Shown here one piece after another: positions 1,420 to 61,082 of a stretch of DNA of 64,000 bases; the first letter of the stretch is position 1; the number at the start of each line of letters is the position of its first letter. The notes beneath the pieces are model-generated. The model worked only from the letters and a program-made list of their open reading frames with translations. It ran no database searches and was not told the origin of the DNA. The position numbers and the translations under genes were made by a program. The DNA comes from an uncultured Candidatus Saccharibacteria bacterium. Its GTDB lineage: Bacteria; Patescibacteriota; Andersenbacteria; UBA10190. The stretch is from the NCBI GenBank assembly GCA_964371255.1, contig CAYJKV010000001.1:163140-227139 (forward strand). The letters are read 5' to 3'.

Positions 1420-3435
1420 ATGGCTGAAGAAGCAAATAAACCGGAAGGTAAAAATAACAAAAACAACCAGGCTGAGAGCTGGAGGCCGGGTGAAGAAGGC
1501 GGTATTCAGATGACGCACCGCGGTTTGTATGTACGAGATGAACCGGCTGAGCTTAAAGCCAGACAACAGGAATTACATCGTCTGGGTATTACACGGCATC
1601 CGCGCGGGGACCTGGAACAGACCGGGGATACTTTGGCGTCAACAAAATATAAGAATTTAGTGCTGCAAAGAGCGAAGCAGTGGGGTAAAATTATTCGCTT
1701 TAGCGGATCATTATTGTTAGTAATATTCTTGGCGGTCTGGGCGGTAGTGGCCTTATTGTGGTACCGCTCACGCGTGACGGTAACGGAGGAACAAGTCAGT
1801 ATCAGGATTGAGGCACCGGCGGAATTCACGGCCGGTGAGGAGATTATTTATAAGATTATTTATAAAAATGATAGTCGAGTAGCGTGGCAGAATGTAGAGT
1901 TGGTGGTAGCGCCCCCCAGGGGTTTTATTTACCGTGGCAGCAACCAGGCAGTAGAGGTGTCGGGAAAAAACGTCATCTGGCGACCAGGTGATTTGACTAG
2001 CGACCAAGGCGGTGAGCTGCATGTGCGAGGACAATTAATCGGCGAGCAAAATGAAACGGCTACATTTAAAACGGACATTATTGTGACACCGATAAATTTT
2101 CCCAGTGGACGTTTTGTGAAGTCAGCGGTGATGGCAACGACGATCACGGCTTTGCCTCTGGAAGTGGCTTTAGATATACCCAGGGATGCGGCGAGCGGCG
2201 AACGAGTGAGGGCTGGTATCCATGTCAGAAACCTAAGCAATAATGTGCTAGGTGATATTTATTTACGATTAAAACCGGCCGACGGTGTGGAATTAGACAC
2301 AGAAGACCCTGAATTTACGTCTGGTTATTTTAGTGTGCCAGGCGAATGGCGGATAACGACGCTTAATTCTCTGGAGAGCAAAGAATTTGATTTTGTATTT
2401 TATTTAACCGGACAACCAGGGGAAACTAGGATAGTCGATGTGGAGGCGGGGATTAGGCAAAACGACGAGGATTTTACGCAGCGTAAATTAACGCATGTGG
2501 TGGCGGTGTCCGCCAGTGAGGTGTTGGTGGAACAAAGGTATAACGGTGAGACTGGTCCGTTGGTAATTACCGCTGGGCAAACGGTTAATGGCGAGGTTAT
2601 TTATAGCAATGTCGGTACGGTTGGATTAAAAGGCGTGATTGTAAAAGTAAGTTTTGAAGGTATTGGTTTTGATCCCGCTACCCTGGAGTTATCCGGCGGG
2701 GCATACAGTTCGGCTGATCAAACAATTACCTGGTCGGCGGCGACTGTGCCGGAGTTGGCGGTCGTGCAACCGCAGCAGGCAGGGGTGATCAAATATAAAT
2801 TTAAAACGCTGGAAGCATCACGCTATCCGGCGATGGGCGTCGGATCAAAGAATAACATTATTGTTAGTATGGCTACGGTGGACAGTCCCGATATCCCAAC
2901 CCCAGCCGGCGGAGAAAAGAAAGTGGTATCAAGCCGGGCCGTTTTGTCACTGCGCACAGATTTAAGTTTGGGTGTAGACGCGTTTTATGATGATGGGAGA
3001 TTAGGTATTAAAAGTACAGGACCGGTGCCGCCTGAAGTGGGTCAAACAACATCGTATACTGTACGTTTTCGTGTGGGCAGCAGCTTGAATGATGTGTCTG
3101 ACATGAGACTGACAGCAGTGCTCCCTGATGGCATAAGGTATACAGGCCAATCGTATAAAACAGGCGGAGATATGACTTTTAGCGATCGCACAGGGGAGCT
3201 GGTATGGTCGTTGCCGTTGGTGGAAGGAGGAGTGGGCCGGACTAAACCGCCACAAGAGCTTCATGTCCAGGTGTCGATCACGCCCGGTGAAGATTTGCGC
3301 GGGGCGGCCGTGGCTTTCCTGAACCAGGCTGCCTTAGTCGCGACTGATCAGTTCGTGGACGAGAGTATAAATGAAACGACTAAGAATTTCCCATCCACAG
3401 AAACGGCGGTGGTAGGGAAAGGCATGGTGCAATAG
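1420..3435 (+). CDS. Membrane-anchored large repeat protein (single N-proximal TM, multiple DUF11/CARDB-like beta-sandwich repeats), hypothetical
   Basis: 671 aa ORF with a TM helix (LLLVIFLAVWAVVALLW) followed by repeated segments with alternating hydrophobic patterns typical of Ig-like/DUF11 domains. Tightly follows recO. Confidence 0.75.
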   Translation: MAEEANKPEGKNNKNNQAESWRPGEEGGIQMTHRGLYVRDEPAELKARQQELHRLGITRHPRGDLEQTGDTLASTKYKNLVLQRAKQWGKIIRFSGSLLLVIFLAVWAVVALLWYRSRVTVTEEQVSIRIEAPAEFTAGEEIIYKIIYKNDSRVAWQNVELVVAPPRGFIYRGSNQAVEVSGKNVIWRPGDLTSDQGGELHVRGQLIGEQNETATFKTDIIVTPINFPSGRFVKSAVMATTITALPLEVALDIPRDAASGERVRAGIHVRNLSNNVLGDIYLRLKPADGVELDTEDPEFTSGYFSVPGEWRITTLNSLESKEFDFVFYLTGQPGETRIVDVEAGIRQNDEDFTQRKLTHVVAVSASEVLVEQRYNGETGPLVITAGQTVNGEVIYSNVGTVGLKGVIVKVSFEGIGFDPATLELSGGAYSSADQTITWSAATVPELAVVQPQQAGVIKYKFKTLEASRYPAMGVGSKNNIIVSMATVDSPDIPTPAGGEKKVVSSRAVLSLRTDLSLGVDAFYDDGRLGIKSTGPVPPEVGQTTSYTVRFRVGSSLNDVSDMRLTAVLPDGIRYTGQSYKTGGDMTFSDRTGELVWSLPLVEGGVGRTKPPQELHVQVSITPGEDLRGAAVAFLNQAALVATDQFVDESINETTKNFPSTETAVVGKGMVQ

Positions 3436-14578: not shown

Positions 14579-17500
14579 ATGGGGTACACTGGTAATATGT
14601 CCGTGCATAAAGCGAGGATGAAAATTAAATACGGTCCACGGGCCGGATATCTTTGGTCATCATTACGATGGAGTGCGACTGTAATACTGTTTTGTTTATT
14701 GCTGGTGGGCGGGTTTCGCTATTTAACGACTAGCCGACAGGCCGGTGCATTAGATTTCACCACTCATTTGTTGAGTGGTGACACAACAGCCGTAGGTGTT
14801 TTGAGTGTCGAGGCGACCGATATTGATGATGACGGTGATATTGACGTTATCACGTGCGGCAAAGACGGTTTAAAAGTTTATACCCAGTCTACCGGCGTGA
14901 CGTTCGGAGCCAAGCTGATAGACGACAAAGCTTGTGAACGGGTGGTGGTGGCAGACCTGGATAAAGATGGGGCCAGCGATTTATTGTTGACGATGTGGGG
15001 AACGCAGCCGAGCGTGCGATGGTACCGTAACACGGGTAACGTGGAATTCTCCGGCACGAATATCGGGACGGGATCGGATGGCAAGGCAGCGGTGGGAGAC
15101 GTGGATGGTGATGGGGCGCTGGATGTCGTGGCGGCCACTACGCAAGGGTCGTTGGTGGTATTGGAACGATGGATGAACAATGGCAGCGGCACTTTCACGT
15201 CAACGCAATTGTCGGCAGACAGCGGGGTGCAAGCGATAGCTATTGGTGACGTAGACGGCAATGGTTTTCGGGATATTGTGACTAGCGGGTCACAGGGTCT
15301 GCAGCGCTGGCACACGTCTGATGGGTTAACATTCTCGCGGATAGACTTGGATGACGCGCATACCGGCCAAAGGCATTTGGCGATCGCGGATATGAATAAT
15401 GACAATAAGACTGATATCATAGCCGCGGAACCGGGCGGTAACCAAGTAATATATTATCGGAACATAGATGAGTGGGCATTCCAGCGGATTGATATTGGTT
15501 CGGACATTGATGCTGCGACGGTGCAGGCAGTTGATTTAGACGAAGATGGTGATGGTGATGTTTTGGTAGCGGCTCAGGATGACAACCAAATTGCTTGGCT
15601 GGAAAATGATGGCAGCGATTCATTCACTAAACGGACGATTGCCGAGGGGTTACAAAGCATTTTCGGCGTGAAAGCGATTGACCTGGATAATGATAATGAT
15701 TTAGACGTAATCGGCGGTAATCACATGCGGGGCACTGTGTACTGGTATGAACGAGTGGTGGCGAAGCCGGTAGCCAGTAAACCAGCTAATATCGAACAGA
15801 GTACTGACGGTAAAGGTATTATTACTTTTTCAACCGCTATCTCAGACGGGGACTTTGATGCGACACGAATACGTGTGCAATATTCGATTGATGGCGTGAA
15901 TTGGTATAAGCCATGGTTAACCGCTGCCTCGCCGTCCGCCGGAACGGTGAATTTAAAAAACAGCCACGGTTATCAGGTTGGGACAACTAATGCGATTGAT
16001 ACAAATAGCAATAGCTCGGTTACGATCACCATGAAATGGGACACTAAGTCGGCGGAAAACACCGGCGGGCCAATTAGCGGCGAGCAATCAGCTGTCCGCC
16101 TGAGAATTATTCCGCGTGATGGGGTAGGGAATGGGGCAACAAGCGACAGCGATGTTTTTGAAATAGATAACCGGGGGCCATCAGCTTCGGGGGTGACGGT
16201 AGAACAACTAAGCAGCGACTCTGTGTATTTGGACTGGGGAAAGGTGGCAGACAGTAGCGGGGTGAGTTTCCAAGTCTATTACGGAACAGATGCCGCCAAG
16301 GTGCTAACTAAAGACTCGGATATCTGGGATACCAGTGACGATGAAGCAATGAGCGACCTGGATAGTACGGGGACAACGGTTACGGGCTTAGTAGCAAATA
16401 CACTGTATACCTTTAAGCTGGTTATGGAGGATGCCTTTGGGAACGAGACTAGCCTGGGCAGCGTCAGTGGTCGGACGACTGCCGACGGGAGCGATGCCGT
16501 GATAGAAACTCCGAGTATATCGCCCGTCATTACCACAATTGTTGTGCCGTCCGCAATACCGATGCCGGAAGCTTCACCTTTACCGAGCAGCGAACCAAGC
16601 GTGGAGCCGTCGCCGGAGGCAACCGTGGTGGCCTCACCGACACCGGAAACGGAAGGGGAAAACTTGCCGCCGAGAGCGGAGGCGGGTAAGGATTTGGTGG
16701 TGAATAGCGGTCAGTTGGTAATTTTAGACGGCACAGGATCCAGGGATCCGGAAGGCGCTTCGTTGGTGTATAGTTGGCGCCAAGTAGTCGGCAAGCCGGT
16801 CAGTTTGTCATCAAGCAATACGGCAACCCCGTCCTTTACAGCAGAACATGAGGACGATTCGTATGTCTTCGCCTTGACCGTTCGGGACATTGGCGGACGA
16901 GTAGCCACCGACACGGTCACGGTTGTTACCAGACCGCCATTGGCGCCTATTACCAAACAACAAAATTTGTCGCCCGAGGAGCAAATGATCGACGTCCCAT
17001 TTATTGTGAGCGGGTTATTGGCACCGGCAAACTATGCCCTGTTATTACTATCTTTTTTTGTGACCGGTGTAGGGGGGCATGGACGAGTTCCCGACCTTTT
17101 CATGCTGAAAATAAAACAAGTAATGAATCAGAGAAAAAAAACGAAAGGACGGCGCGGCGGGCATGTTATAAGGGTTGTGGATGCGCAAACCGGGCGCAGA
17201 TTGGCTGGTATAAAGTTAGTGGTGAAAGGGATGGATGACAAAATATGGAGTAAGGCGATCACAACAGAACAAGGAGAAGCGGCAATGCAGCTACCGGTCG
17301 GTCAGTATCGGGTGCAGTTAAAAGAGGATGTTTATTCATTTACTCCGGCGGGATCAAAAATCCCGGTGCAGCCTGGGGAAGTGGTTTACGCGGGCGGTAA
17401 TTTGCAAGTGAAGCGGCAGGATGAACCGATGACAATTCTGGTACCGTTGAAGCGAGCAGGCGGAGAAATTAAGTCCTGGCGAATGTCAATTCTAAAGAGT

Positions 17501-17968
17501 TGGCAATTTGTGCAACGACGAAGCCACCTATTAGCATGGCCGGTATATATAGCTGGGTCAGGCTTGAATACAATATTGTTATTGTGGGTGCCACAGCTGC
17601 AATGCCTGATTATTGAAATTATTTATATCGTACTAGTGTTGATAAAAGTTTGGATGGAAGTGAGACAAACCCCATCTTATGGAGTGGTGCGGGACGCGAT
17701 CTCTAGGGTGCCACTTGATCTGGCAGTAGTACGTCTGTATGAAGAGAAATCAAACAAATTGGTGTTAACCAGGGCAACCAATGGACAAGGAAAATTTTTC
17801 GCCTTACCTCCCTCCGGTCTATATACAGTGACGGTGACGAAGCCCGGTTATGCCACCTTCACTAAACATGGGGTGGCGGTAGGCCGGGAACAAAATACCG
17901 CTATGCAGATTCAAACTGATTTGATGCCGGTTGTGCCGAAGGTCAGACCAATGATGGCGATGGGATAG
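14579..17968 (+). CDS. Giant cell-surface protein: N-terminal TM, FG-GAP/VCBS-type beta-propeller repeats, FN3/PKD-like domains, Pro/Ser/Glu linker, TM segments, C-terminal carboxypeptidase-regulatory-like beta-sandwich domains
   Basis: Repeated DxDxDGxxD motifs (DIDDDGDIDVI, DLDKDGASDLL, VGDVDGDGALDVV, IGDVDGNGFRDIV, DLDEDGDGDVL, DLDNDNDLDVI). PKD-like segment (SWRQVVGKPVSLSSSNTATPSFTAE). CarbopepD_reg-like segments (GLYTVTVTKPGYATF). Confidence 0.78.
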   Translation: MGYTGNMSVHKARMKIKYGPRAGYLWSSLRWSATVILFCLLLVGGFRYLTTSRQAGALDFTTHLLSGDTTAVGVLSVEATDIDDDGDIDVITCGKDGLKVYTQSTGVTFGAKLIDDKACERVVVADLDKDGASDLLLTMWGTQPSVRWYRNTGNVEFSGTNIGTGSDGKAAVGDVDGDGALDVVAATTQGSLVVLERWMNNGSGTFTSTQLSADSGVQAIAIGDVDGNGFRDIVTSGSQGLQRWHTSDGLTFSRIDLDDAHTGQRHLAIADMNNDNKTDIIAAEPGGNQVIYYRNIDEWAFQRIDIGSDIDAATVQAVDLDEDGDGDVLVAAQDDNQIAWLENDGSDSFTKRTIAEGLQSIFGVKAIDLDNDNDLDVIGGNHMRGTVYWYERVVAKPVASKPANIEQSTDGKGIITFSTAISDGDFDATRIRVQYSIDGVNWYKPWLTAASPSAGTVNLKNSHGYQVGTTNAIDTNSNSSVTITMKWDTKSAENTGGPISGEQSAVRLRIIPRDGVGNGATSDSDVFEIDNRGPSASGVTVEQLSSDSVYLDWGKVADSSGVSFQVYYGTDAAKVLTKDSDIWDTSDDEAMSDLDSTGTTVTGLVANTLYTFKLVMEDAFGNETSLGSVSGRTTADGSDAVIETPSISPVITTIVVPSAIPMPEASPLPSSEPSVEPSPEATVVASPTPETEGENLPPRAEAGKDLVVNSGQLVILDGTGSRDPEGASLVYSWRQVVGKPVSLSSSNTATPSFTAEHEDDSYVFALTVRDIGGRVATDTVTVVTRPPLAPITKQQNLSPEEQMIDVPFIVSGLLAPANYALLLLSFFVTGVGGHGRVPDLFMLKIKQVMNQRKKTKGRRGGHVIRVVDAQTGRRLAGIKLVVKGMDDKIWSKAITTEQGEAAMQLPVGQYRVQLKEDVYSFTPAGSKIPVQPGEVVYAGGNLQVKRQDEPMTILVPLKRAGGEIKSWRMSILKSWQFVQRRSHLLAWPVYIAGSGLNTILLLWVPQLQCLIIEIIYIVLVLIKVWMEVRQTPSYGVVRDAISRVPLDLAVVRLYEEKSNKLVLTRATNGQGKFFALPPSGLYTVTVTKPGYATFTKHGVAVGREQNTAMQIQTDLMPVVPKVRPMMAMG

Positions 17969-28150: not shown

Positions 28151-28182
28151 AACATTACGATATTATGTAATATCGTAATGTT
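28151..28182. promoter_or_regulatory. 12-6-12 palindrome ACATTACGATAT-TATGTA-ATATCGTAATGT, copy A, between the dprA stop and topA start
   Basis: Read directly from the sequence. Perfect 12 bp inverted arms with an asymmetric 6 bp spacer. Confidence 0.7.
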
Positions 28183-28215: not shown

Positions 28216-28247
28216 ATTATTACGATATTATGTAATATCATAATAAT
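28216..28247. promoter_or_regulatory. Same palindrome, copy B (variant ...ATATCATAATAAT), 65 bp from copy A, same orientation
   Basis: Core TTACGATATTATGTAATATC(A)TAA is identical apart from one position. Confidence 0.65.
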
Positions 28248-39908: not shown

Positions 39909-40967
39909 ATGACAGCCCAAGTGCCACCACCTAATTTACCTTTGTCATCAAGCGGTGATAATAAACCTGGTGGAGGGAGAGGCATGGAGCCAGGCAAGTT
40001 TGGACCAAAGCCGATGCCGCGGCCTACCGGTACGCCAGTAGTTCCCCAGGCGTCACCTGTACCGAGCAGCCGGCCACCTTTGCCTGCGCAGTTAATAAAA
40101 GAACAAGAGAAAAGTGTTCCAAATAATCCACCGGGCGGAGGGGTAGACGCACCGGATCCATTCATGACGGGTGGAACAGGTAAAACTGCTGTGCCGAGCA
40201 AACCGTTGGTAGACAGTGGACAGCAAGGGGCCGCAACTACACCAAGCGGAATAAAAGGAATCAGCGGGGCGGCTTGGCAGGGCGGTAACCCGAATATGCC
40301 GGATAGTTTTAGTGCCGTACCTCCTAGTATAGACGAAGCAAAACCGATTGCTCCGACTGCGTTTAGAGAACCAGAGATGCCGCGCAAAGGACGAAGGCGA
40401 GCGGCGTTAATCGTGGGTATAGTGGTGATTGTTATTATGCTGGCCGCGATTGGGTATGCTGCGGTAAGGTTTTTTATGGTTAATTTAGGGACAGCGGAAA
40501 ATTCAGAAACAACAACACCTCTAGCAGAAGAGACGGCGGAGGAAACACCGGACACGATACCTAGCGGCGAAGGAGACTTGTTACTGCCGACAGTACCCAC
40601 CGTTGAGCCCGCAACAACAGCATCACCGGGAGTGACTTTAATGCCAACAACCGGGACAGATGCAGAGGTGCTTGATACAGACCAAGATGGATTAACAGCG
40701 GCGGAAGAGAGGTTTTATGGTACGGATGTAAATAAGGCCGACACGGATGAAGACGGTTTTAATGATGGTGAAGAGATTCGCTCGGGCTACGATCCGCTGG
40801 GACCCGGAAAATTAGACTCGGACAATGATGGATTTGCGGATCCGGAAGAGAGAGAATTTGGGAGCGATCCTTTCAATCCTGACACCGATGGTGATGGTTA
40901 CAGCGATGGTGATGAGATACAGAACGGTTATAATCCGCTGATTCCTTCACCGGGCGATAAGTTATAG
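39909..40967 (+). CDS. Pro-rich membrane protein with C-terminal thrombospondin type-3-like calcium-binding repeats
   Basis: N-terminal P/G-rich region, TM ([22 protein letters not shown]), then four DxDxDGxxDxxE repeats ([48 protein letters not shown]). The antisense ORF 39902..40600 is spurious. Confidence 0.7.
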
Positions 40968-52968: not shown

Positions 52969-53000
52969 AATATTACGATATTACATAATGTCGTAATATT
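52969..53000. promoter_or_regulatory. Same palindrome, copy C (opposite spacer orientation, one mismatch), in the tgt / yerC-like divergent promoter region
   Basis: AATATTACGATAT-TACATA-ATGTCGTAATATT, about 45 bp upstream of the regulator start codon. Confidence 0.7.
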
Positions 53001-53044: not shown

Positions 53045-53503
53045 ATGATGGGCAGATTTGATTATCGAGGATTGTCTGCCGAGAAGCGGCGCGAGTTTTT
53101 GGATAGGCTGGCTGATATAGTCGCGCACATTCGAAAAAAGGAAGAAGCACGATTTTTTCTTGAGAGACTTTTAACAGAAAGTGAAGTGGTGATGCTAATG
53201 CGCCGGTTGGAAGTGGCCGAACTGCTGCTGGACGGATTAACGTATGAAAAGATCAGGCGTAAATTGGGCGTGGGAACGTCAACGATTTATATCGTTGATA
53301 AGTGGCTGACTGAAGCAGCCTATGAATACAGAGAGATACGAGCGTATCAGAGAAGGATAGGCAAAGATGCCAAGCGAGCCAGAGAAAGAGACAGTAAACG
53401 CGCAAAGGGGCATGTGGAATCGACGATGCCTGGAACATTAAGGCAGATGATTCGTCATGATGCACGATTTATCCTGTTTCGTTTGCTGTTGGGCAATGTT
53501 TAG
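53045..53503 (+). CDS. TrpR-like YerC/YecD family DNA-binding regulator
   Basis: LTESEVVMLMRRLEVAELLLDGLTYEKIRRKLGVGTSTIYIV is the YerC/YecD TrpR-like HTH. The gene is flanked on both sides by the 12-6-12 palindrome. Confidence 0.8.
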   Translation: MMGRFDYRGLSAEKRREFLDRLADIVAHIRKKEEARFFLERLLTESEVVMLMRRLEVAELLLDGLTYEKIRRKLGVGTSTIYIVDKWLTEAAYEYREIRAYQRRIGKDAKRARERDSKRAKGHVESTMPGTLRQMIRHDARFILFRLLLGNV

Positions 53504-53572: not shown

Positions 53573-53604
53573 CATTACGATATTATGTAATATCGTAATA
53601 TGTG
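53573..53604. promoter_or_regulatory. Same palindrome, copy D (exact match to copy A), 70 bp downstream of the yerC-like regulator stop
   Basis: ACATTACGATATTATGTAATATCGTAATAT. Confidence 0.7.
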
Positions 53605-54077: not shown

Positions 54078-54150
54078 CGGGGTGTAGTATAGAGGCAGTA
54101 CGCAAGGCTGGGGGTCTTGTAGCCCGGGTTCGATTCCCGGCACCCCGACA
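54078..54150 (+). tRNA. tRNA-Pro (anticodon GGG)
   Basis: Hand fold: acceptor CGGGGTG/CACCCCG, D-stem GTAT/GTAC, anticodon stem CAAGG/TCTTG with loop CTGGGGG (anticodon GGG, G37), T-arm CCGGG-TTCGATT-CCCGG, discriminator A. Confidence 0.75.
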
Positions 54151-54167
54151 GAGAGGGTGAAGCAGAA

Positions 54168-54294
54168 GTGGCTGGCTTCACGAGACATGTGTCGCCCCGC
54201 TGTGGCGGGGCGCACTCAATCTCAACCGCGCCCGCGGGGCGCGATTTCCGATATGGTCTCTTAAAGTCCAGCCACTTCTGCTTCGGGGGAATAA
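54168..54294. repeat. About 127 bp GC-rich element bounded by 17-18 bp near-perfect inverted repeats (TGAAGCAGAAGTGGCTGG ... CCAGCCACTTCTGCTTCG) with two internal GC hairpins, immediately 3' of tRNA-Pro
   Basis: Internal hairpins CGCCCCGC-tgtg-GCGGGGCG and CGCGCCC-gcg-GGGCGCG, with no ORF. Confidence 0.5.
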
Positions 54295-54528
54295 AATAAA
54301 CGTCCATTATAGAATGGTGCGGCTTTTGTCCCTAAATTATATACATCGAATATTTGTTACACTTTAAACAAAATTTCAACTGCCTTCACTGATAAGCCTG
54401 TCGTCGTTATTTTTTTGATAAAAGTTGAAATTGAAGTGATTTTGTTTTTGAACGAAAAAGCCTAGATAAAATGTTATTTATTTACTGCAATAAGGATAGA
54501 ATGATTGTATAATTTATGTTTGAGATTG

Positions 54529-56940
54529 ATGGACAGTATTATGAATGATAAAAATGCTATGCCGATGAATGAGCTGCGCGGTAAGAAGATTTTACTGGTG
54601 AATACTGGATCGGTAAAAAAGCGTTTTGTTTTACAAAAGCTAAAAAAGTTAGGCCTGGTGGTAGTAGTGTTGAACAAGGAAAAGAATTGGGCACAAGCTT
54701 ATATTGATGATTGGATTATCGCCGACACAGGAAATTTCAAAGAGTGTATTCAGGCTGTGCGTGAATACATGAAGAATAATCCGGCAAGTTTGTTTGATGC
54801 GGCAATAACTTTTTGGGAAGACGATGTCCTATTAACCAGTAAGATTACAGATTCGTTCAATCTGGTCGGTATACCATATAGGGTTGCACAAAAAGCGCGA
54901 AACAAATTTGTGTTTAGGGAATTTTGCGAACTGAACGGCATACGCGCGCCCCAGCACGCTTTGTTAAAATCGACTGAAGATTGCAAACGGGTGACACAGA
55001 GTTTCCATTTTCCACTGGTGGTCAAACCAGTATATGGCGCTTCGAGCGCATACGTTGTCAAAGTAGACGATGAAGATGATCTCTATAATACCTTTGAGTA
55101 CATACGGAAGAATATGTCCACCGAAATTGAATCGGCTTTAGCCAATGGGCGGGATATATTAGTGGAGGAATATATTGACGGCAACGAAGTGGACGTAGAT
55201 ATCCTATTGCAGAACGGAAAAGTGAAGTTTTACTCCATTACTGATAATTTCCAAACAAGGGAACCATTTTTTGTGGAAACGGGAGACGCTATACCTTCCA
55301 GCTTGCCGGCTTGGGAGCAGCATAAGTTAGTAGAACTCGCGGAAGAGGTTCTGGAAAAGTTAGCCATCCAGAATGGGTGCATTCATTTTGAAGCCAAAGC
55401 CGCGAAAGACGGACCGGTACCGATCGAAGTGAACTTACGGATGGGTGGAGATTATGTTTATTCGTTTATCAAGGGAGTTTGGGGTGTGGACTTAATTGAG
55501 AACGCCGTAAAAATTGCCTGTGGGATATATATCAGTCACATACCAAAGCCGGAGAGACCGCTGAAGTTCTTGGCCGGAAAATATTTCTTACCGGATAATT
55601 CTGGAATTCTGGCAAAGCTTGATATTAATGAGAAGATGAAAAATGATTATCACTTGGAAGAAGTGAATCTCAACAAGAAGATTGGCGATCCAATTCTAGT
55701 GCCACCGGAGGGATATGAGTTTCTCGGGTGGCTGACGGTAGCCGGAGAGAATGCAATTGATACCCAGGACAATATCAGGGACCTGAGTAAAAATGTGACT
55801 TTTGAGGTGGCGCGATTTGACCGTGATTCTTTTATTGGTAAAACCTCGCGAAAGAACAGATTTTCAGCGGCTAGGTTGAATAAAGACAGTCTGCTGCGCG
55901 CGTTTAAAAAAGAGAATATCAAGCGAATATCGATATCTGATCTGCGCAGTCTGAATATTGGTATAGCTTATAACAGTGATGGGGAAGGGGGTAACCAATC
56001 GGCAGAAAAACCAGCCGGAGCGGCTCAGATGATGGAGCAGACATTGAAAGAACTGGGTTATAAGACAAGTGTGTTTGATTACAATGTGCTGGCGGATGTG
56101 TTTGAAGCGTTGCGTATCAGTGAGGTTAATCTGGTGATCAATGCCGGAGCGCGGGTGCTGGATTCAGAATATGGAGAAGTGCACGCAGCTGCCTTGTTGG
56201 ACATGCTGGATATTCCATATACAGGGCCGAACCCGACAACCCTAGGCGTGTGTCGTGACCTAACGCGAATAAAAAAACTGCTGCAGTTTCATAGCATACC
56301 GACGCCTAAATGGGATTATGTTTATGAGCTGGATGATGAGATACGGGAAGACTTAAAGTTTCCATTAATTGTTAAACCGATGTATGAGGGGGGGCCGATT
56401 AAAATTGGGCAGCAATCGGTAGTAACGGATAAACAGATGCTGCAGGAGGCATTGAATGTATACATCAAAAAATTTAATATACCTGCGATTATTGAAGAAT
56501 TTATTGACGGCGATGAATACCAGGTGGTGATATTGGGTAATGAAAATAACGTGCGGGCACTGCCGCTATCGCGCTTAATTTTTCAAGAACAACCGGTAGG
56601 CGTCTGGCCCATTCATGTCCAGGGAAACGGGGGGATTGAGATAGAAACGAACGATGTCTTAATACAACATCCGCCTAGGAACATTCCTAAAAAACTTGAG
56701 TCCCTCATTACCGAAATGGCGCTCGATACATATAATATTTTGGAAGGCTCTGATTTAGGCCAGGTTAAAATCCGGGTAGATAAAGACCTTAATCCTCATA
56801 TCATTTGCTTTGATCCGCTACCATCTCTGCATCCGCAAGGAGGGGTGGCTGGTGCGGCGGCGGTAAGTGGCATTAGCTATAGCGAGTTGTTAGAAGAGAT
56901 TGTGCGCATTGCGATTACGCGATACAAAAACGAAGAATGA
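54529..56940 (+). CDS. Tandem ATP-grasp ligase (N-terminal ATP-grasp module plus C-terminal D-Ala-D-Ala-ligase-like module)
   Basis: First half: FPLVVKPVYGASSAYVVKV...EEYIDGNEVDVDIL. Second half: Ddl-like (EYGEVHAAALLDMLDIPYTGPNP...FPLIVKPMYEGGPIKIG...EEFIDGDEYQVVIL). The track start is TTG at 54505. The first ATG downstream of a TATAAT is 54529, and 54541 or 54565 are alternatives. Confidence 0.75.
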   Translation: MDSIMNDKNAMPMNELRGKKILLVNTGSVKKRFVLQKLKKLGLVVVVLNKEKNWAQAYIDDWIIADTGNFKECIQAVREYMKNNPASLFDAAITFWEDDVLLTSKITDSFNLVGIPYRVAQKARNKFVFREFCELNGIRAPQHALLKSTEDCKRVTQSFHFPLVVKPVYGASSAYVVKVDDEDDLYNTFEYIRKNMSTEIESALANGRDILVEEYIDGNEVDVDILLQNGKVKFYSITDNFQTREPFFVETGDAIPSSLPAWEQHKLVELAEEVLEKLAIQNGCIHFEAKAAKDGPVPIEVNLRMGGDYVYSFIKGVWGVDLIENAVKIACGIYISHIPKPERPLKFLAGKYFLPDNSGILAKLDINEKMKNDYHLEEVNLNKKIGDPILVPPEGYEFLGWLTVAGENAIDTQDNIRDLSKNVTFEVARFDRDSFIGKTSRKNRFSAARLNKDSLLRAFKKENIKRISISDLRSLNIGIAYNSDGEGGNQSAEKPAGAAQMMEQTLKELGYKTSVFDYNVLADVFEALRISEVNLVINAGARVLDSEYGEVHAAALLDMLDIPYTGPNPTTLGVCRDLTRIKKLLQFHSIPTPKWDYVYELDDEIREDLKFPLIVKPMYEGGPIKIGQQSVVTDKQMLQEALNVYIKKFNIPAIIEEFIDGDEYQVVILGNENNVRALPLSRLIFQEQPVGVWPIHVQGNGGIEIETNDVLIQHPPRNIPKKLESLITEMALDTYNILEGSDLGQVKIRVDKDLNPHIICFDPLPSLHPQGGVAGAAAVSGISYSELLEEIVRIAITRYKNEE

Positions 56941-58001
56941 TTATGAAGGAGATAAAGGTGGAGAAGCAGGAGCTTTCGTTTCGGGAGCCATTTGCAATCG
57001 CTTACGAAACAGTAGATTACGCCTCCGTAATTCTGTTAGGACTGGAAGACGAGAAGGGGAATGTAGGGCTGGGCAGCGCGGCACCGGACGAGACAGTGAC
57101 CGGAGAAAATATCGACGAAATAAAAACACTTTTAGAAAAACGCGTGGATTTGGATTTCTTTTGTCATGCTCTTGAGGATCGGGCATGGTATGAAAAAAGA
57201 ATTCGACAGCAGCTAGATGGCTATCCGTCAGCACAAGCAGCTGTGGAAACAGCTTTGATACATTTGGTAGCGCTACGAGAGGGAGTAAGCCCGCAAAAAT
57301 ATTTTGGAACATGCCGGCCGTCGTGTGCTTTGGTGGTGACGGTGGGAATAAAGCCGTTGCCAGATACGCTAGTTGAAGTTAATAAACGCGTGCAAGACGG
57401 GTTTAAATCAATCAAGTTGAAGGTGGGCTTAGATATGGATGGTGATATAGAAAAAATACAGGCAGTGCGTGAGGCCTTACCAGCTAACATCAAGTTAATT
57501 ATCGATGCTAATCAGGGATATAAGTACGCTGAAGCAAAGCGAGTACTAGAAGCGATTGGCGACTTGAATATTGCGGGAGTGGAGCAGCCTATTTCAGCTA
57601 AGCAAAAGGAAGAATTCAAAAGATTGCGGGCAATGGAGCGGCTGCCGCTGATCGCTGACGAGTTGGCCACCAAAGCGGATGAAGCGAAGCTATTAATGAA
57701 ACAAGATTACGCCGACGGTATTAATATAAAAATGATGAAGTTTGGCGGCCCGAGTTCTTGTCAGGAAATAATTGAATATGCTTTGGAAAGATCAAAGCTG
57801 GTTATGCTGGGGTGCATGTACGAGTCGAATGTTTCGATTACAGCCGCGGCCTATCTGGCGCTGGCTTATCCGATACAGTTTGTTGATTTGGATAGCGGAC
57901 ATTTTGATTTTGAAAATGATGGCACGGCAGGAGGCGCAGCGGTAAGCAATGGTATGTTGTATGTTGATGGGATGCCAAGATTGGTCAAAGGAAAATTTTA
58001 G
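56937..58001 (+). CDS. Enolase-superfamily dipeptide epimerase (MLE subgroup, L-Ala-D/L-Glu epimerase-like)
   Basis: KxK motif (FKSIKLKVG), metal ligands (IIDANQGY, VEQP, ADE) and a TIM-barrel of about 350 aa. Start overlaps the upstream stop (ATGA). Confidence 0.82.
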   Translation: MIMKEIKVEKQELSFREPFAIAYETVDYASVILLGLEDEKGNVGLGSAAPDETVTGENIDEIKTLLEKRVDLDFFCHALEDRAWYEKRIRQQLDGYPSAQAAVETALIHLVALREGVSPQKYFGTCRPSCALVVTVGIKPLPDTLVEVNKRVQDGFKSIKLKVGLDMDGDIEKIQAVREALPANIKLIIDANQGYKYAEAKRVLEAIGDLNIAGVEQPISAKQKEEFKRLRAMERLPLIADELATKADEAKLLMKQDYADGINIKMMKFGGPSSCQEIIEYALERSKLVMLGCMYESNVSITAAAYLALAYPIQFVDLDSGHFDFENDGTAGGAAVSNGMLYVDGMPRLVKGKF

Positions 58002-58004
58002 GCT

Positions 58005-58628
58005 ATGAAGAAAGTAATAAAAAACATTATCAGGTCGGACAAGTTCAATGAGAAATATTTCAAGACAGGAAATTATGAGAATTATGAGGAAAATGCGCGG
58101 TTCTGGACTGGACGGGTGGCAAGACAGATAAAAAGGACGAGCAAAAAGCCGAGGCCGCGGATTCTTGACGTGGGTTGTGCTCATGGATATTTGATGACAG
58201 CAGCTCAGAACATTGGCTGTGATGTAGAAGGATTGGAATATTCGGACTATGTAATAAAGGAAGCAATAGAGGGAGTGCGCGGGAAAATTAAGAAGGGCAG
58301 TATCCTTAGGGGTGGTTTTAAAAATGATGAATTTGATGTGGTGGCTTGTTTCAATGTTTTAGAATATATACCGGAGGAGAAAATCGAGTTGGCATTAAAC
58401 AATTTAGTGAAATGGACCAACGACTTAATATTTTTTACGACATGTTTTAAGCATTCGCGCTATTCGTCACAAAAACATAGCCCTGACGAGTTACGAATGA
58501 CCATAAAAACCGAAAAGGAATGGATAGAGCTTTTTCATGATGTTGGCGCAGCACACCTGGCAACATTTTACGACGGAGGTGGCGGCGATGTATTAATATT
58601 CACAAAGAAGCATGGACAAAGAAATTGA
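58005..58628 (+). CDS. Class I SAM-dependent methyltransferase
   Basis: Motif I ILDVGCAHGYLM, with an acidic motif II and motif III. Confidence 0.78.
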   Translation: MKKVIKNIIRSDKFNEKYFKTGNYENYEENARFWTGRVARQIKRTSKKPRPRILDVGCAHGYLMTAAQNIGCDVEGLEYSDYVIKEAIEGVRGKIKKGSILRGGFKNDEFDVVACFNVLEYIPEEKIELALNNLVKWTNDLIFFTTCFKHSRYSSQKHSPDELRMTIKTEKEWIELFHDVGAAHLATFYDGGGGDVLIFTKKHGQRN

Positions 58629-59997
58629 GGTGAGCACGACGATAGAAGCAGCGGGCATCAAAGTTATAGTTGATGGTCATGCGATGCTGTTAAAGTATCC
58701 TGATCAGGTTTGGCGTTCTTATCCCCAGCCGGCGAAAGAAGTGCTTAGGGATAACGTGGCTTTAAGCAGCACATTATTCGTACCGCAAATAATGGATAGC
58801 CAGCGGATAAAATATGATACATCGCGACCAGTGAGTGAGGCTTTCTTATTCAAGAATGGCATCTATGACATGCCAAACTCAGCACTAACGGATGGAGCGT
58901 CATCGATTTCTTACATAAAAAAGTTTTTTAACACAGTGGCGGTTTTTAGGAATAATGAGATTCGTCTCCAGCCATGCGATGCTAATCACCGGCAGGCAAA
59001 TAAAAATATTATGGTGGTTCCTTTCACCTTTGGGAAAGATAGTATGTTGACCGCTGCCCTGGCGCAGGAGATAGGTATCAAGCCATATTTAGTGTATTTT
59101 ATTGAACCGGCACATTTACACGAGCATAGACATAAGAAAAGATTAAAAAAATCATTCAGCCGAAAAACAGGTCTAATATTAGAAGAGGTGGAGAACGAGC
59201 CGGGGAGGATGCGATACGGCAGGTTGTGGGGGAAAGATACTGAATTGGGGTGGGGGTTGCAAACAACCGAATACGCAATGATGTTGTTACCATTCCTTCA
59301 TTTCTATGATGCGATGTATGTTGGTTTAGGCAATGAACATTCTTGCGGTGAAGCTGGTTTAAACGGAGAGGGGGTACTGACACATTGGACTGGTTACGAT
59401 CAACATCCAGATTGGACTGCACAACAAAGTTTGTTGGTATCGCTCATGGGGGGAGCACAAAGGAGAGTGGTAAGTTTGGTGGAACCATTGCACGAGATTG
59501 CAGAAGTAGCAATTTTGCATAGAAGGTATCCGCAATTTGGCCAGTTTCATACCTCGTGTTTGGCAATAGGGCGAGGGGCGGAGAGAAATCGATGGTGCCA
59601 ACGATGTGAGAAGTGCGGGGTGATGTATACTTTTTTAAAGGCTTTAAATGTCGATGTGCGTCGGATTGGATTTACCGAAAACTTGTTAGACAAAGAGCAC
59701 TATGAACTCTTTAAAAACTTGTTTAATGCAACCAACTCCCCTTTATTTTATGCAGTAGATGAAGAAATTTATTTAGCTATGTATATGGCTATGAAGCGGG
59801 GTGCAGAGGGGGAAGTACTGCGAGTCTTTGCGAAGAAAGTATTGCCAAGATATAAGAGGTTGGTGAGAAAATACAGCCAGGAATTTTTCAGCGCCCATCC
59901 GACTAATAATCTGCCAGATGATATCGGGCGTAAGTTGTTTAGGATATATGATGAGGAGTTGGGTAAAGTTCGTCTTGAAATTGAAGCGTTAGGATAA
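58612..59997 (+). CDS. PP-loop (adenine-nucleotide alpha-hydrolase) superfamily ATPase with C-terminal Cys4 cluster (amidotransferase/QueC/WbpG-like)
   Basis: Degenerate PP-loop FTFGKDS, and a C-x11-C-x2-C-x2-C cluster (CLAIGRGAERNRWCQRCEKC). Start overlaps the upstream gene by 17 nt. Confidence 0.65.
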   Translation: MDKEIEVSTTIEAAGIKVIVDGHAMLLKYPDQVWRSYPQPAKEVLRDNVALSSTLFVPQIMDSQRIKYDTSRPVSEAFLFKNGIYDMPNSALTDGASSISYIKKFFNTVAVFRNNEIRLQPCDANHRQANKNIMVVPFTFGKDSMLTAALAQEIGIKPYLVYFIEPAHLHEHRHKKRLKKSFSRKTGLILEEVENEPGRMRYGRLWGKDTELGWGLQTTEYAMMLLPFLHFYDAMYVGLGNEHSCGEAGLNGEGVLTHWTGYDQHPDWTAQQSLLVSLMGGAQRRVVSLVEPLHEIAEVAILHRRYPQFGQFHTSCLAIGRGAERNRWCQRCEKCGVMYTFLKALNVDVRRIGFTENLLDKEHYELFKNLFNATNSPLFYAVDEEIYLAMYMAMKRGAEGEVLRVFAKKVLPRYKRLVRKYSQEFFSAHPTNNLPDDIGRKLFRIYDEELGKVRLEIEALG

Positions 59998-59999
59998 TT

Positions 60000-61082
60000 G
60001 TGAAAAGTCAGGTAACGCACAACGAGATGGTGGCAATGCTCCCTTTGAGGTGGGAGGCGGGTGGGTGGCTAGGGGATATGGAGGATAGGTTTTTCTTGTC
60101 TTTTGCTGACGCTTGGCAGCAAATAATGAAACACCTAAGTCCGATAAATAGCACCATATTAGTACCGAACTTTTATTGTCCGGACACTTTAGCTTTGTAC
60201 GGAAAATACGGCACGCTAGTATTTTATAAGACCAATAATGATTTGACGATAAATATTCAGTCATACACAGAGGCTGTTCGCTTGTACAGCCCGGGAATGA
60301 TTATTAACTATGGCTATATTTCCTCGCCCGTATGCGATGATCGGGTAAGGCAAATATTAAAAGCGTCCCCGGACATAATTGTGATAGAGGATTGTGCGCA
60401 TCGGCTTTTGACCAAGGAAGACGTAATATTTGTACATCAGAACCATTTCTATATTGACAGCATAAGGAAACAAACCGGCATGCTGGGCAGTCATGTGATG
60501 GACCGGTCGCAATGCTTGAAGAAGGAGAAAATATCAAGAATCAATACGTATAAAATAAAAGTGACCGGGATGAAGTTTTTACAGGAATTAATTAATTTAA
60601 TGACTTACTGGACCCAGTCCAGAAGGTTGCATTTGATCAGTGATGCTGTTTTTGAAGCGCTGGATGGGATGATTGGAAGTGATGCGAAGCCAACCTTAGG
60701 TAATACAGTGTTTCACTCTTTGTGGAATCACCTCGATCTGGTGAAACTAACAGATTATAAAAAACAACTGGCAAGAGGTTATCTGGAAAAATTGAAGTTA
60801 GTACAACACAAGAATTTCTATGTGCCGCCTTTGGCTGACAGAAACCTTTCTTATTTTCCGTGTCTGGTTTATGGCGAGGACAATGAACGATTAGTTGAAT
60901 ACTTAGCGGCGAGGAATATTTCGATTGGATCATTGTGGGATTTACCGGTGAAACCGATGGAGGGTCTGAATAAATCTTTGTATGAATCTGTGCTGGTATT
61001 GCCCTTAACGTGGAAAACAAAAATAGAGGATGTCGCGCGGGTGGGTAGCGAGATAGAGAAATTCTTTATGAGAAAGAAATAA
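60000..61082 (+). CDS. DegT/DnrJ/EryC1/StrS family PLP-dependent enzyme (sugar aminotransferase-like)
   Basis: Alignable DegT blocks (VPNFYCPDT, IIVIEDCAHRL, SIRKQTG with a Lys). Starts 3 nt after the upstream stop. Confidence 0.7.
   Translation: MKSQVTHNEMVAMLPLRWEAGGWLGDMEDRFFLSFADAWQQIMKHLSPINSTILVPNFYCPDTLALYGKYGTLVFYKTNNDLTINIQSYTEAVRLYSPGMIINYGYISSPVCDDRVRQILKASPDIIVIEDCAHRLLTKEDVIFVHQNHFYIDSIRKQTGMLGSHVMDRSQCLKKEKISRINTYKIKVTGMKFLQELINLMTYWTQSRRLHLISDAVFEALDGMIGSDAKPTLGNTVFHSLWNHLDLVKLTDYKKQLARGYLEKLKLVQHKNFYVPPLADRNLSYFPCLVYGEDNERLVEYLAARNISIGSLWDLPVKPMEGLNKSLYESVLVLPLTWKTKIEDVARVGSEIEKFFMRKK

Follow-up and report, generated by a model that had tools for sequence, protein, structure and literature searches.

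A five-gene operon of Patescibacteria pairing a fused ATP-grasp ligase with a MurL-related PP-loop enzyme: a putative pathway to a short tailored peptide

What does an energy-costly biosynthetic operon make in the kind of genome that has shed most of its biosynthesis, and that shares this operon, patchily, with DPANN and other archaea? The question is raised by five genes that follow one another on the forward strand at ~54.5–61.1 kb of a 64,000-nucleotide (nt) stretch of the Patescibacteria contig CAYJKV010000001.1 (the whole stretch is referred to hereafter as the window). The product of the fourth gene, ORF4, belongs to a family whose members, as far as seen, are hypothetical or nameless, no source giving them a functional name; literature searches returned nothing relevant on this cluster, on MurL homologs or on racemase loss in bacteria of the candidate phyla radiation. 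We consider there to be about an even chance that the operon represents a pared-down version, with a methyltransferase, of a horizontally scattered accessory pathway that makes a short tailored peptide with neither the ribosome nor a non-ribosomal peptide synthetase.

The operon and its five predicted enzymes

The five open reading frames (ORFs) are tightly packed. ORF1, which ends at 56940 and has in-frame starts at TTG 54505, ATG 54529 and ATG 54541 (giving 811, 803 and 799 amino acids (aa), respectively), overlaps ORF2 (56937–58001, 354 aa) by 4 nt (ATGA); a 3-nt gap separates ORF2 from ORF3 (58005–58628, 207 aa); ORF3 overlaps ORF4 (58612–59997, 461 aa) by 17 nt; and 2 nt lie between ORF4 and ORF5 (60000–61082, 360 aa, GTG start). 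Consensus promoter and terminator scans gave site counts no higher than in shuffled sequence, and it is therefore from the spacing of the genes and their conserved order (see below) that we infer a single transcript. The GC content of the operon is modestly lower (43.2% versus 47.4%). An earlier note on this DNA had described this packing, and these junctions, behind a tRNA-Pro gene, and had named the products as a tandem ATP-grasp ligase with one Ddl-like module, a dipeptide epimerase, a class I methyltransferase, a PP-loop enzyme with a four-cysteine cluster and a DegT-like pyridoxal phosphate (PLP) enzyme; coordinates and sequence agree with the architecture, and the enzyme assignments are borne out by the matches given below, with the qualification that the Ddl-like half of the ligase, although present, has lost catalytic residues here.

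Two of the starts needed a choice. Comparison of the ORF1 N-terminus (MNDK...LRGKK) with that of its ortholog in the nearest relative (MNGK...LQGKR, with equal spacing; locus L007, a Candidatus Andersenbacteria metagenome-assembled genome, or MAG) points to ATG 54541, and hence to 799 aa, as the probable translation start. Public gene calls give cluster-member ORF2 proteins 347 aa, which corresponds to the alternative start GTG 56958, situated behind an AAGGAG Shine-Dalgarno sequence; alignment favors ATG 56937, solved epimerases aligning from residue 3–4 on.

ORF4 has no match in Pfam, and a PDB sequence search was fruitless. Against the NCBIfam model of MurL (NF041275) it scores 26 bits (E = 3e-6), where the equivalog cutoff stands at 700 bits; 15 of 16 members of the ORF4 family match the same model (best 3.5e-13), all of them far under that cutoff, and relatives of ORF4 carry the precomputed Pfam label MurL_epimerase_C, marked faint. 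A further profile search toward named MurL proteins led to the same 64 unnamed proteins, and the weakest full-length representatives from an exhaustive search gave no nearer bridge. The structural model of ORF4, which is of high confidence, has a QueC-like core and finds its best structural match in QueC; both the Rossmann-like fold and the SGGxDS-type motif after the first strand, by which the PP-loop superfamily is recognized, are present. In the alignment of homologs the motif (F140-G141-K142-D143-S144, 59029–59043) has invariant F, G and K, followed by E/D and then S/T. Four cysteines (C316, C329, C332 and C335, in the arrangement C-x12-C-x2-C-x2-C, 59557–59616) are invariant across 16 divergent homologs, with a spacing that may resemble that of the QueC zinc site. 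The domains that ORF4 has in addition, of ~125 aa at the N-terminus and ~115 aa at the C-terminus, are without structural match. ORF4 is assigned to a rare family that is remotely related to MurL and built on a QueC-fold PP-loop core, and the predicted reaction is the adenylation of a carboxylate, in which AMP is released. MurL itself epimerizes peptides in one direction, in a reaction that depends on ATP and Mg and forms AMP, and it acts after a ligase which adds an L-amino acid (PMC5808125, PMC8788868).

The N-terminal module of ORF1 (54583–55809) matches Pfam ATP-grasp_4 (2.9e-28, 99 bits), LAL_C2 (33.1 bits, over a cutoff of 29.4 bits) and the L-amino acid ligase BL00235 (PDB 3vot, 1.3e-28), while scoring under every NCBIfam equivalog cutoff. 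No substitution occurs among 34 orthologs at K166, E213, E220, E288, E300 or R304, and 28 of them also have N302, such that the module unites the ATP-grasp catalytic residues with the LAL_C2 domain, the two marks of an L-amino acid ligase (LAL); LALs ligate two unprotected L-amino acids. We predict that this LAL-type module is active.

The C-terminal module (56023–56916) aligns with Ddl over nearly its full length (Pfam Dala_Dala_lig_C 9.5e-27; PDB 3r23 1.6e-17; NCBIfam PRK01372 7e-43) and scores under all Ddl model cutoffs. Its residues were mapped by HMMER alignments to five Ddl structures and by an alignment of 30 fused orthologs. At positions equivalent to DdlB K97, R255, D257, E270 and N272 the window protein has Leu, Gln, Lys, Cys and Asp, respectively; the K144 equivalent is kept, S150 is replaced by Gly and the omega-loop fails to align, leaving incomplete the set that defines a Ddl (K97, K144, K215, D257, E270 and N272, with the triad E15/S150/Y216). 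Approximately 23 of the 30 fused orthologs retain the canonical K, E/D, E and N, the R255 position being variable. The same degeneration is found in L007 and in locus L009 and, by distinct patterns of substitution, in L001, L011 and L021. The alignments indicate that the C-terminal module is probably degenerate and that a single ligase module is active in this lineage, because the Ddl-like half has lost its Mg/ATP residues.

ORF2 matches solved dipeptide epimerases (PDB 3rit 3e-39, 3jva 4e-37, and YkfB, 1jpm, 9e-33), and alignment to these reveals the complete catalytic set of the MLE-subgroup dipeptide epimerases of the enolase superfamily: the KxK motif at 160–162, a second lysine (K265), the Mg ligands D190/E216/D241 and the DxD motif at 317–319. 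Judged by this alignment, ORF2 is a genuine dipeptide epimerase of the enolase superfamily. At position 24 it has Glu, as do 17 of 18 orthologs, and the second loop has a conserved Asp, D51; in YkfB of Bacillus subtilis, the equivalent Arg24 of the capping loop was reported in contact with the substrate carboxylate (10.1101/2022.05.01.490185). Because ORF2 has Glu at the position where YkfB has Arg, we do not regard it as an L-Ala-D/L-Glu epimerase (the AEE type, YkfB/YcjG), a family recognized by Arg24 and an equivalog-level score; against the corresponding NCBIfam model (NF041118) ORF2 reaches 166 bits, under the 500-bit cutoff. A reasonable guess, drawn by analogy from E24 and D51, is that the enzyme would prefer a basic rather than an acidic C-terminal side chain.

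The two remaining genes are candidates for tailoring functions. ORF3 matches Pfam Methyltransf_23 (44.5 bits), Methyltransf_25 (39.7 bits) and Methyltransf_11 (37 bits), each over its cutoff, and by these domains is a generic class I S-adenosylmethionine (SAM)-dependent methyltransferase; it was found only in the window, in L007 and in L005/L008. A defense role was considered and dropped, the sole PADLOC match being that of ORF3 to mad2 (5e-9, methyltransferase domain only), a generic fold. ORF5 has no Pfam match (the gathering score of PF01041 is not reached) and a PDB sequence search with it was fruitless, whereas two of its distant homologs pass the Pfam DegT model, in the C-terminal third only. 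Its AF2 model (pLDDT 90.3) retrieves DegT-class sugar aminotransferases as the top Foldseek matches (E ~1e-11, TM ~0.6, 14–16% identity), and two residues never vary among the homologs, D131 (in IEDCAH) and K157 (in IDSIRK); their spacing is that of the two residues sought in a PLP enzyme, an Asp that binds the pyridine nitrogen and a Schiff-base Lys. From the model, ORF5 is a putative fold-type-I PLP enzyme of DegT-like architecture.

Distribution and gene neighborhoods

A scan of species-representative genomes, with the ORF4 motif as the scan pattern, yielded 79 loci; neighbors were then counted at 80 non-redundant loci, using phmmer and an unbiased clustering. Loci bearing ORF4 are spread patchily over many classes of Patescibacteria, DPANN, Bathyarchaeia, Asgard archaea and Bdellovibrionota, and an exhaustive profile search of 1.84 billion proteins recovered 172 representatives at E ≤ 1e-30. 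The family is thus rare and scattered over distant phyla, as accessory specialized pathways tend to be.

The most frequent neighbor of ORF4 is an ATP-grasp ligase of the LAL/Ddl class (58 of the 80 loci), followed by ORF2 (22), a gene resembling diaminopimelate (DAP) decarboxylase or N-citrylornithine decarboxylase (21), ORF5 (19) and a third ATP-grasp gene (18). ORF2 is usually accompanied by ORF5, and the decarboxylase-like gene by the third ATP-grasp. The ligase adjoining ORF4 is of the fused ORF1 type in Patescibacteria, whose loci provided the 30 distinct fused orthologs, and takes the form of one to three separate Ddl-like genes in archaea. Beyond this core the partners vary: the clade of the window has the methyltransferase and lacks the third ligase and the decarboxylase, GNAT and PALP proteins are lineage-specific partners in Bathyarchaeia, and an Acetyltransf_6 (FemAB-like) or LPG_synthase_C-like transferase joins the cluster in some Patescibacteria. 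No mur, sugar-nucleotide, peptidase or transporter gene was recurrent across the 80 loci.

All five window proteins have conserved homologs. The nearest relative, L007 (ORF4 73% identical), has all five genes in identical order and matches the downstream synteny as well (L28, M50 peptidase, rpsL, rpsG and fusA); L005 keeps the five-gene order, except that its ORF1 is cut by the contig end. The earlier note had supposed that the operon was uncharacterised, in keeping with the want of a functional name in all sources, and had named two outcomes that would speak against its proposal, namely genes that are not co-conserved in related genomes and products that are ordinary peptidoglycan enzymes. 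Neither was observed: the genes are co-conserved in relatives (in the order seen in L007 and L005), and their products are not ordinary peptidoglycan enzymes.

Several variants of the cluster were recorded alongside this census. The largest is found in Jacksonbacteria (L088, 1431–12758; L018 is similar) and comprises a fused ligase, an LPG_synthase_C-like protein (aminoacyl-tRNA transferase fold), an ORF4 paralog, an epimerase, a DegT-like protein, a third ATP-grasp, a second ORF4 and a DAP-decarboxylase-like gene. Tandem or convergent pairs of ORF4 paralogs occur at L036, L038, L047, L055, L056, L064, L066, L067 and L081, for the most part in MAGs of Gottesmanbacteria and of DPANN or unclassified archaea. 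The archaeal version (L086, 2495–6472; Bathyarchaeia loci L041–L061) combines ORF4, one Ddl-like ligase, a GNAT acetyltransferase and a PALP-family PLP enzyme, the order of which is conserved, and looks like a separate small-peptide pathway in organisms without murein. Clusters of the Patescibacteria type also turned up in records labeled Acidobacteriaceae, Gammaproteobacteria or Methanosarcinales (L005/L008, L017, L023, L033 and L043, among others); such labels seem to stem from misbinning or misclassification and not to name the real hosts.

A proposed pathway and its alternatives

The gene order, coupling, folds, catalytic motifs and co-occurrence observed at these loci can be arranged into a scheme for the window operon. 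The LAL-type N-terminal module of ORF1 would form an L,L-dipeptide from two free L-amino acids at the expense of ATP (to ADP), in a single ligation here, the Ddl-like C-terminal module being non-catalytic in this lineage and presumably active in most relatives. ORF2 would then take the alpha-proton of the C-terminal residue and interconvert L-X-L-Y and L-X-D-Y, an order of events with precedent in vitro, where a LAL followed by a dipeptide epimerase gave an L-X-D-Y dipeptide (PMC13338154). In the QueC-fold PP-loop site of ORF4 the peptide carboxylate would be adenylated (ATP to AMP and PPi), which might lead to one-way epimerization, by analogy to MurL, or to amidation or another acyl transfer, by analogy to QueC/AsnO. 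The aminotransferase-like PLP enzyme ORF5 and the SAM methyltransferase ORF3 would provide or tailor a building block or the product. Substrates, the order of the steps and the outcome of the adenylation are those that we infer.

In favor of a tailored peptide is the observation that the tailoring genes differ by lineage (methyltransferase; GNAT with PALP; FemAB-like or LPG_synthase_C-like transferase) around a conserved core of an amino-acid ligase and a MurL-related adenylating PP-loop enzyme, a pair that by analogy mirrors the logic of MurD2/MurL. A number of points weigh on the other side. For every member of the cluster, product, substrate and activity alike are putative. The link between ORF4 and MurL is a remote one (26 bits as against 700), and ORF2 and ORF4 would be redundant were both to epimerize the C-terminal residue, so that one of them probably has another role. 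The idea of a basic substrate is a guess from two loop residues, the ligand of 3rit, and the analogy to YkfB (10.1101/2022.05.01.490185); the degeneracy of the Ddl-like module is read solely from alignments. At the cluster there is no exporter or immunity gene, such as a secreted natural product might need. Finally, because the loci with paralog pairs (bar L067) have no ATP-grasp gene within 7 kb, the ORF4 family is not always partnered with an adjacent ligase.

Of the alternatives, the one that survives best, and which we nonetheless hold to be unlikely, is a way of providing the cell wall with D-amino acids without racemases. In this MurD2/MurL-like scheme L-amino acids would be ligated and then epimerized within the peptide by ORF2/ORF4, yielding di- or tripeptides with D-residues (of the X-D-Ala or L-Lys-D-Ala-D-Ala type) for the stem peptides or bridges of Patescibacteria. 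The homology of ORF4 to MurL and the Ddl-like module of ORF1 would both suit such a role, as would the similarity of ORF2 to the murein-peptide L-Ala-D/L-Glu epimerases, the FemAB-like (Acetyltransf_6) and LPG_synthase_C-like transferases and DAP-decarboxylase-like gene at some loci, and a window that has ftsA and ftsZ and is without ddl, alr or murI. However, the ORF4 family extends to DPANN, Bathyarchaeia and Asgard archaea, of which the latter two are not known to have murein, and it is rare even within Patescibacteria; no mur gene is recurrent beside the cluster at the 80 loci; and within the operon ORF2 has Glu, not Arg, at the Glu-binding position and the Ddl-like module is degenerate.

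It is less probable still that the operon makes a capped-dipeptide compatible solute resembling N-acetylglutaminylglutamine amide (NAGGN). In the NAGGN pathway the ATP-grasp/GNAT protein Ngg makes an N-acetyl dipeptide, whose C-terminal carboxylate is amidated by the PP-loop enzyme AsnO. Here, ORF4 would amidate with free ammonia, as does QueC (which turns a carboxylate into an amide and then a nitrile), and methylation by ORF3 would stand in for GNAT acetylation. The best structural match of ORF4 is indeed QueC, at archaeal loci a Ddl-like ligase and a GNAT acetyltransferase are found beside ORF4, and a cluster without an exporter fits an intracellular solute. This proposal has to contend with the facts that the sole sequence-level relative of ORF4 of known activity, MurL, is an epimerase, that ORF4 has no glutaminase domain, and that the NCBIfam search returned no match to a NAGGN family; it also leaves the dipeptide epimerase and the PLP enzyme without a role.

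Salvage or catabolism of host murein peptides or D-amino-acid dipeptides, after the manner of B. subtilis ykf and Escherichia coli YcjG, with ORF2 supplying L,L forms to an auxotrophic episymbiont, strikes us as very unlikely. Patescibacteria do rely on scavenged building blocks, a lifestyle to which such a function would be suited, and ORF2 falls in the dipeptide epimerase group with YkfB (1jpm, 9e-33); yet position 24 is unlike that of the murein-peptide enzyme, there is no peptidase, LD-carboxypeptidase or peptide transporter in the cluster or recurrent nearby, and the conserved company of ORF2, namely ligases that consume ATP and an adenylating enzyme, argues for anabolism.

Modification of a nucleotide sugar, as in the acetamidino-sugar chemistry of a WbpG/PseA-like PP-loop amidotransferase with a DegT aminotransferase that the earlier note had brought up, is hardly credible, for although the nearest structures to ORF5 are sugar aminotransferases and ORF3 has a weak match to a pseudaminic-acid-associated methylase of NCBIfam (2e-4, under cutoff), ORF5 is only 14–16% identical to those enzymes and does not reach the Pfam DegT model, the sugar-nucleotide genes that accompany such an amidotransferase are missing (no dehydratase, nucleotidyltransferase or glycosyltransferase recurs at the 80 loci), and the partners are instead amino-acid ligases and a dipeptide epimerase.

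Returning to the short tailored peptide, a wider proposal can be made from it tentatively, and we think it rather unlikely: that the pair of ATP-grasp ligase and MurL-like enzyme is a general, unrecognized machine that ligates and then epimerizes with ATP, supplying racemase-independent D-residue peptides in Patescibacteria, DPANN, Bathyarchaeia and Asgard archaea. Were this so, the products could feed cell-envelope peptides in Patescibacteria, and ORF4 would be the founder of a second family of ATP-dependent peptide epimerases with a function of its own. To our knowledge MurL is the only characterized ATP-driven one-way peptide epimerase, and its mechanism is unclear; a second MurL-like family that is structurally tractable, as the high-confidence ORF4 model suggests, and that is paired with simple ATP-grasp ligases would help to define this chemistry. 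Compact ligase and epimerase tools for D-residue peptides are also possible, an engineered route of LAL and epimerase being already in use for penicillin precursors (PMC13338154). For the episymbionts themselves, the product may have a part in the envelope, in protection from stress or in interaction with the host.

Surroundings of the operon and comparison with known systems

The earlier note had also drawn attention to the flanks of the operon, namely the tRNA gene, an inverted repeat, the L28 gene and a regulator bracketed by palindromes; all are present, and neither the tRNA gene nor the regulator could be tied to the operon. The tRNA-Pro(GGG) gene (54078–54149) was confirmed upstream of it. 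Immediately 3′ of this gene lies a GC-rich element (54158–54284) with perfect 17-nt inverted arms (54159–54175 and 54268–54284) that folds very stably (−78.7 kcal/mol, z = −6.9) and has no counterpart in Rfam; an unannotated small RNA, an insulator resembling a terminator and the scar of an integration are all conceivable. Among five relatives scanned for a tRNA beside the cluster, only L011 has one (a tRNA-Tyr just upstream), L007 being without a nearby tRNA; with tRNA adjacency unconserved, the downstream synteny shared with L007 and only a modest drop in GC, a tRNA-linked island is unsupported. Just downstream of ORF5, in convergent orientation, is the gene of ribosomal protein L28 (61113–61373).

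Upstream of the tRNA gene, a TrpR/YerC-like regulator gene (53045–53503) lies between two copies of the palindrome ATTACGATATTA-nn-TAATATCGTAAT (12-nt half-sites), at 52972–52997 and 53574–53599; two further copies (28154–28179 and 28219–28244) lie between the topoisomerase I and dprA genes. Eight half-sites were seen in the window against 0.43 expected by chance. The palindrome may be the operator of this regulator or a REP-like element. A link between regulator and operon was dropped, the palindrome having no copy upstream of ORF1 and yet being present 25 kb away.

The remainder of the window is ordinary Patescibacteria housekeeping (aminoacyl-tRNA synthetases, topoisomerase I, FtsA/FtsZ, an LCP-family protein and ComEC), with no mur, ddl, alr or murI gene within the 64 kb. 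GC skew is strongly and evenly positive throughout (0.12–0.33 per 2-kb bin over positions 1–64000) with no switch, and the majority of genes are on the forward strand, as expected of a leading-strand segment. Large predicted surface proteins with DUF11, FG-GAP/PKD/CarboxypepD_reg and TSP3 repeats are encoded at 1420–3435, 14579–17968 and 39909–40967; they resemble typical episymbiont adhesins and bear no relation to the operon.

Compared with known systems, the parts of the operon all come from known superfamilies, and the logic of ligating and then epimerizing has precedent; it is the ORF4 family, its pairing with an ATP-grasp ligase, the fused LAL-Ddl architecture and the cluster as a whole that are uncharacterized. 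The N-terminal module of ORF1 resembles the LALs (BL00235, 3vot; BacD/YwfE; RizA; TabS) in having LAL_C2 and the full ATP-grasp catalytic set, and departs from them in belonging to an ~800-aa fusion with a Ddl-like module, a fusion seen in none of the named matches here. That second module is like Ddl in its near-full-length alignment and unlike it in its replaced Mg-ligand and phosphate-binding residues. ORF2 is ~35–40% similar over its full length to YkfB (1jpm/1tkk), TM0006 of Thermotoga maritima (2zad) and the enzymes of Methylococcus capsulatus (3rit) and Enterococcus faecalis (3jva), with which it has in common the catalytic Lys pair, the Mg ligands and the ammonium-binding DxD motif, but it differs from YkfB-type epimerases in having Glu24 rather than Arg and in being genomically coupled to ligases, not to peptidases or transporters. 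ORF5 has the fold of the DegT/DnrJ/EryC1 enzymes (PseC, PglE, DesV and ArnB), with ED-x-AH and S-x-x-K at matching positions, from which it is set apart by 14–16% identity, the lack of a Pfam match, and a dipeptide epimerase for a neighbor instead of sugar-nucleotide genes. ORF4, in turn, differs from QueC and the QueC-like proteins Cap9 and YcfA in that its sequence does not match QueC significantly, genes for queuosine or deazaguanine are absent nearby and PADLOC gave no match to it.

The closest parallel is with MurD2/MurL of Xanthomonas oryzae (XOO_1319/1320), reportedly described by Feng et al. in 2017 and reviewed in PMC5808125 and PMC8788868. The partner ligase of ORF4 is an ATP-grasp enzyme of LAL/Ddl type and not of the Mur family (there is no Mur ligase in the window, none is recurrent at the 80 loci, and a UDP-MurNAc context is absent), and the ORF4 family, unlike this pair, is present in archaea as well. 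ORF4 is nevertheless a detectable homolog of MurL, as the matches of 15 of 16 family members to its model indicate, and the two systems would share the same two-step logic, in which a ligase adds an L-amino acid and a dedicated enzyme, a part predicted here for ORF4, then acts on the new C-terminal residue.

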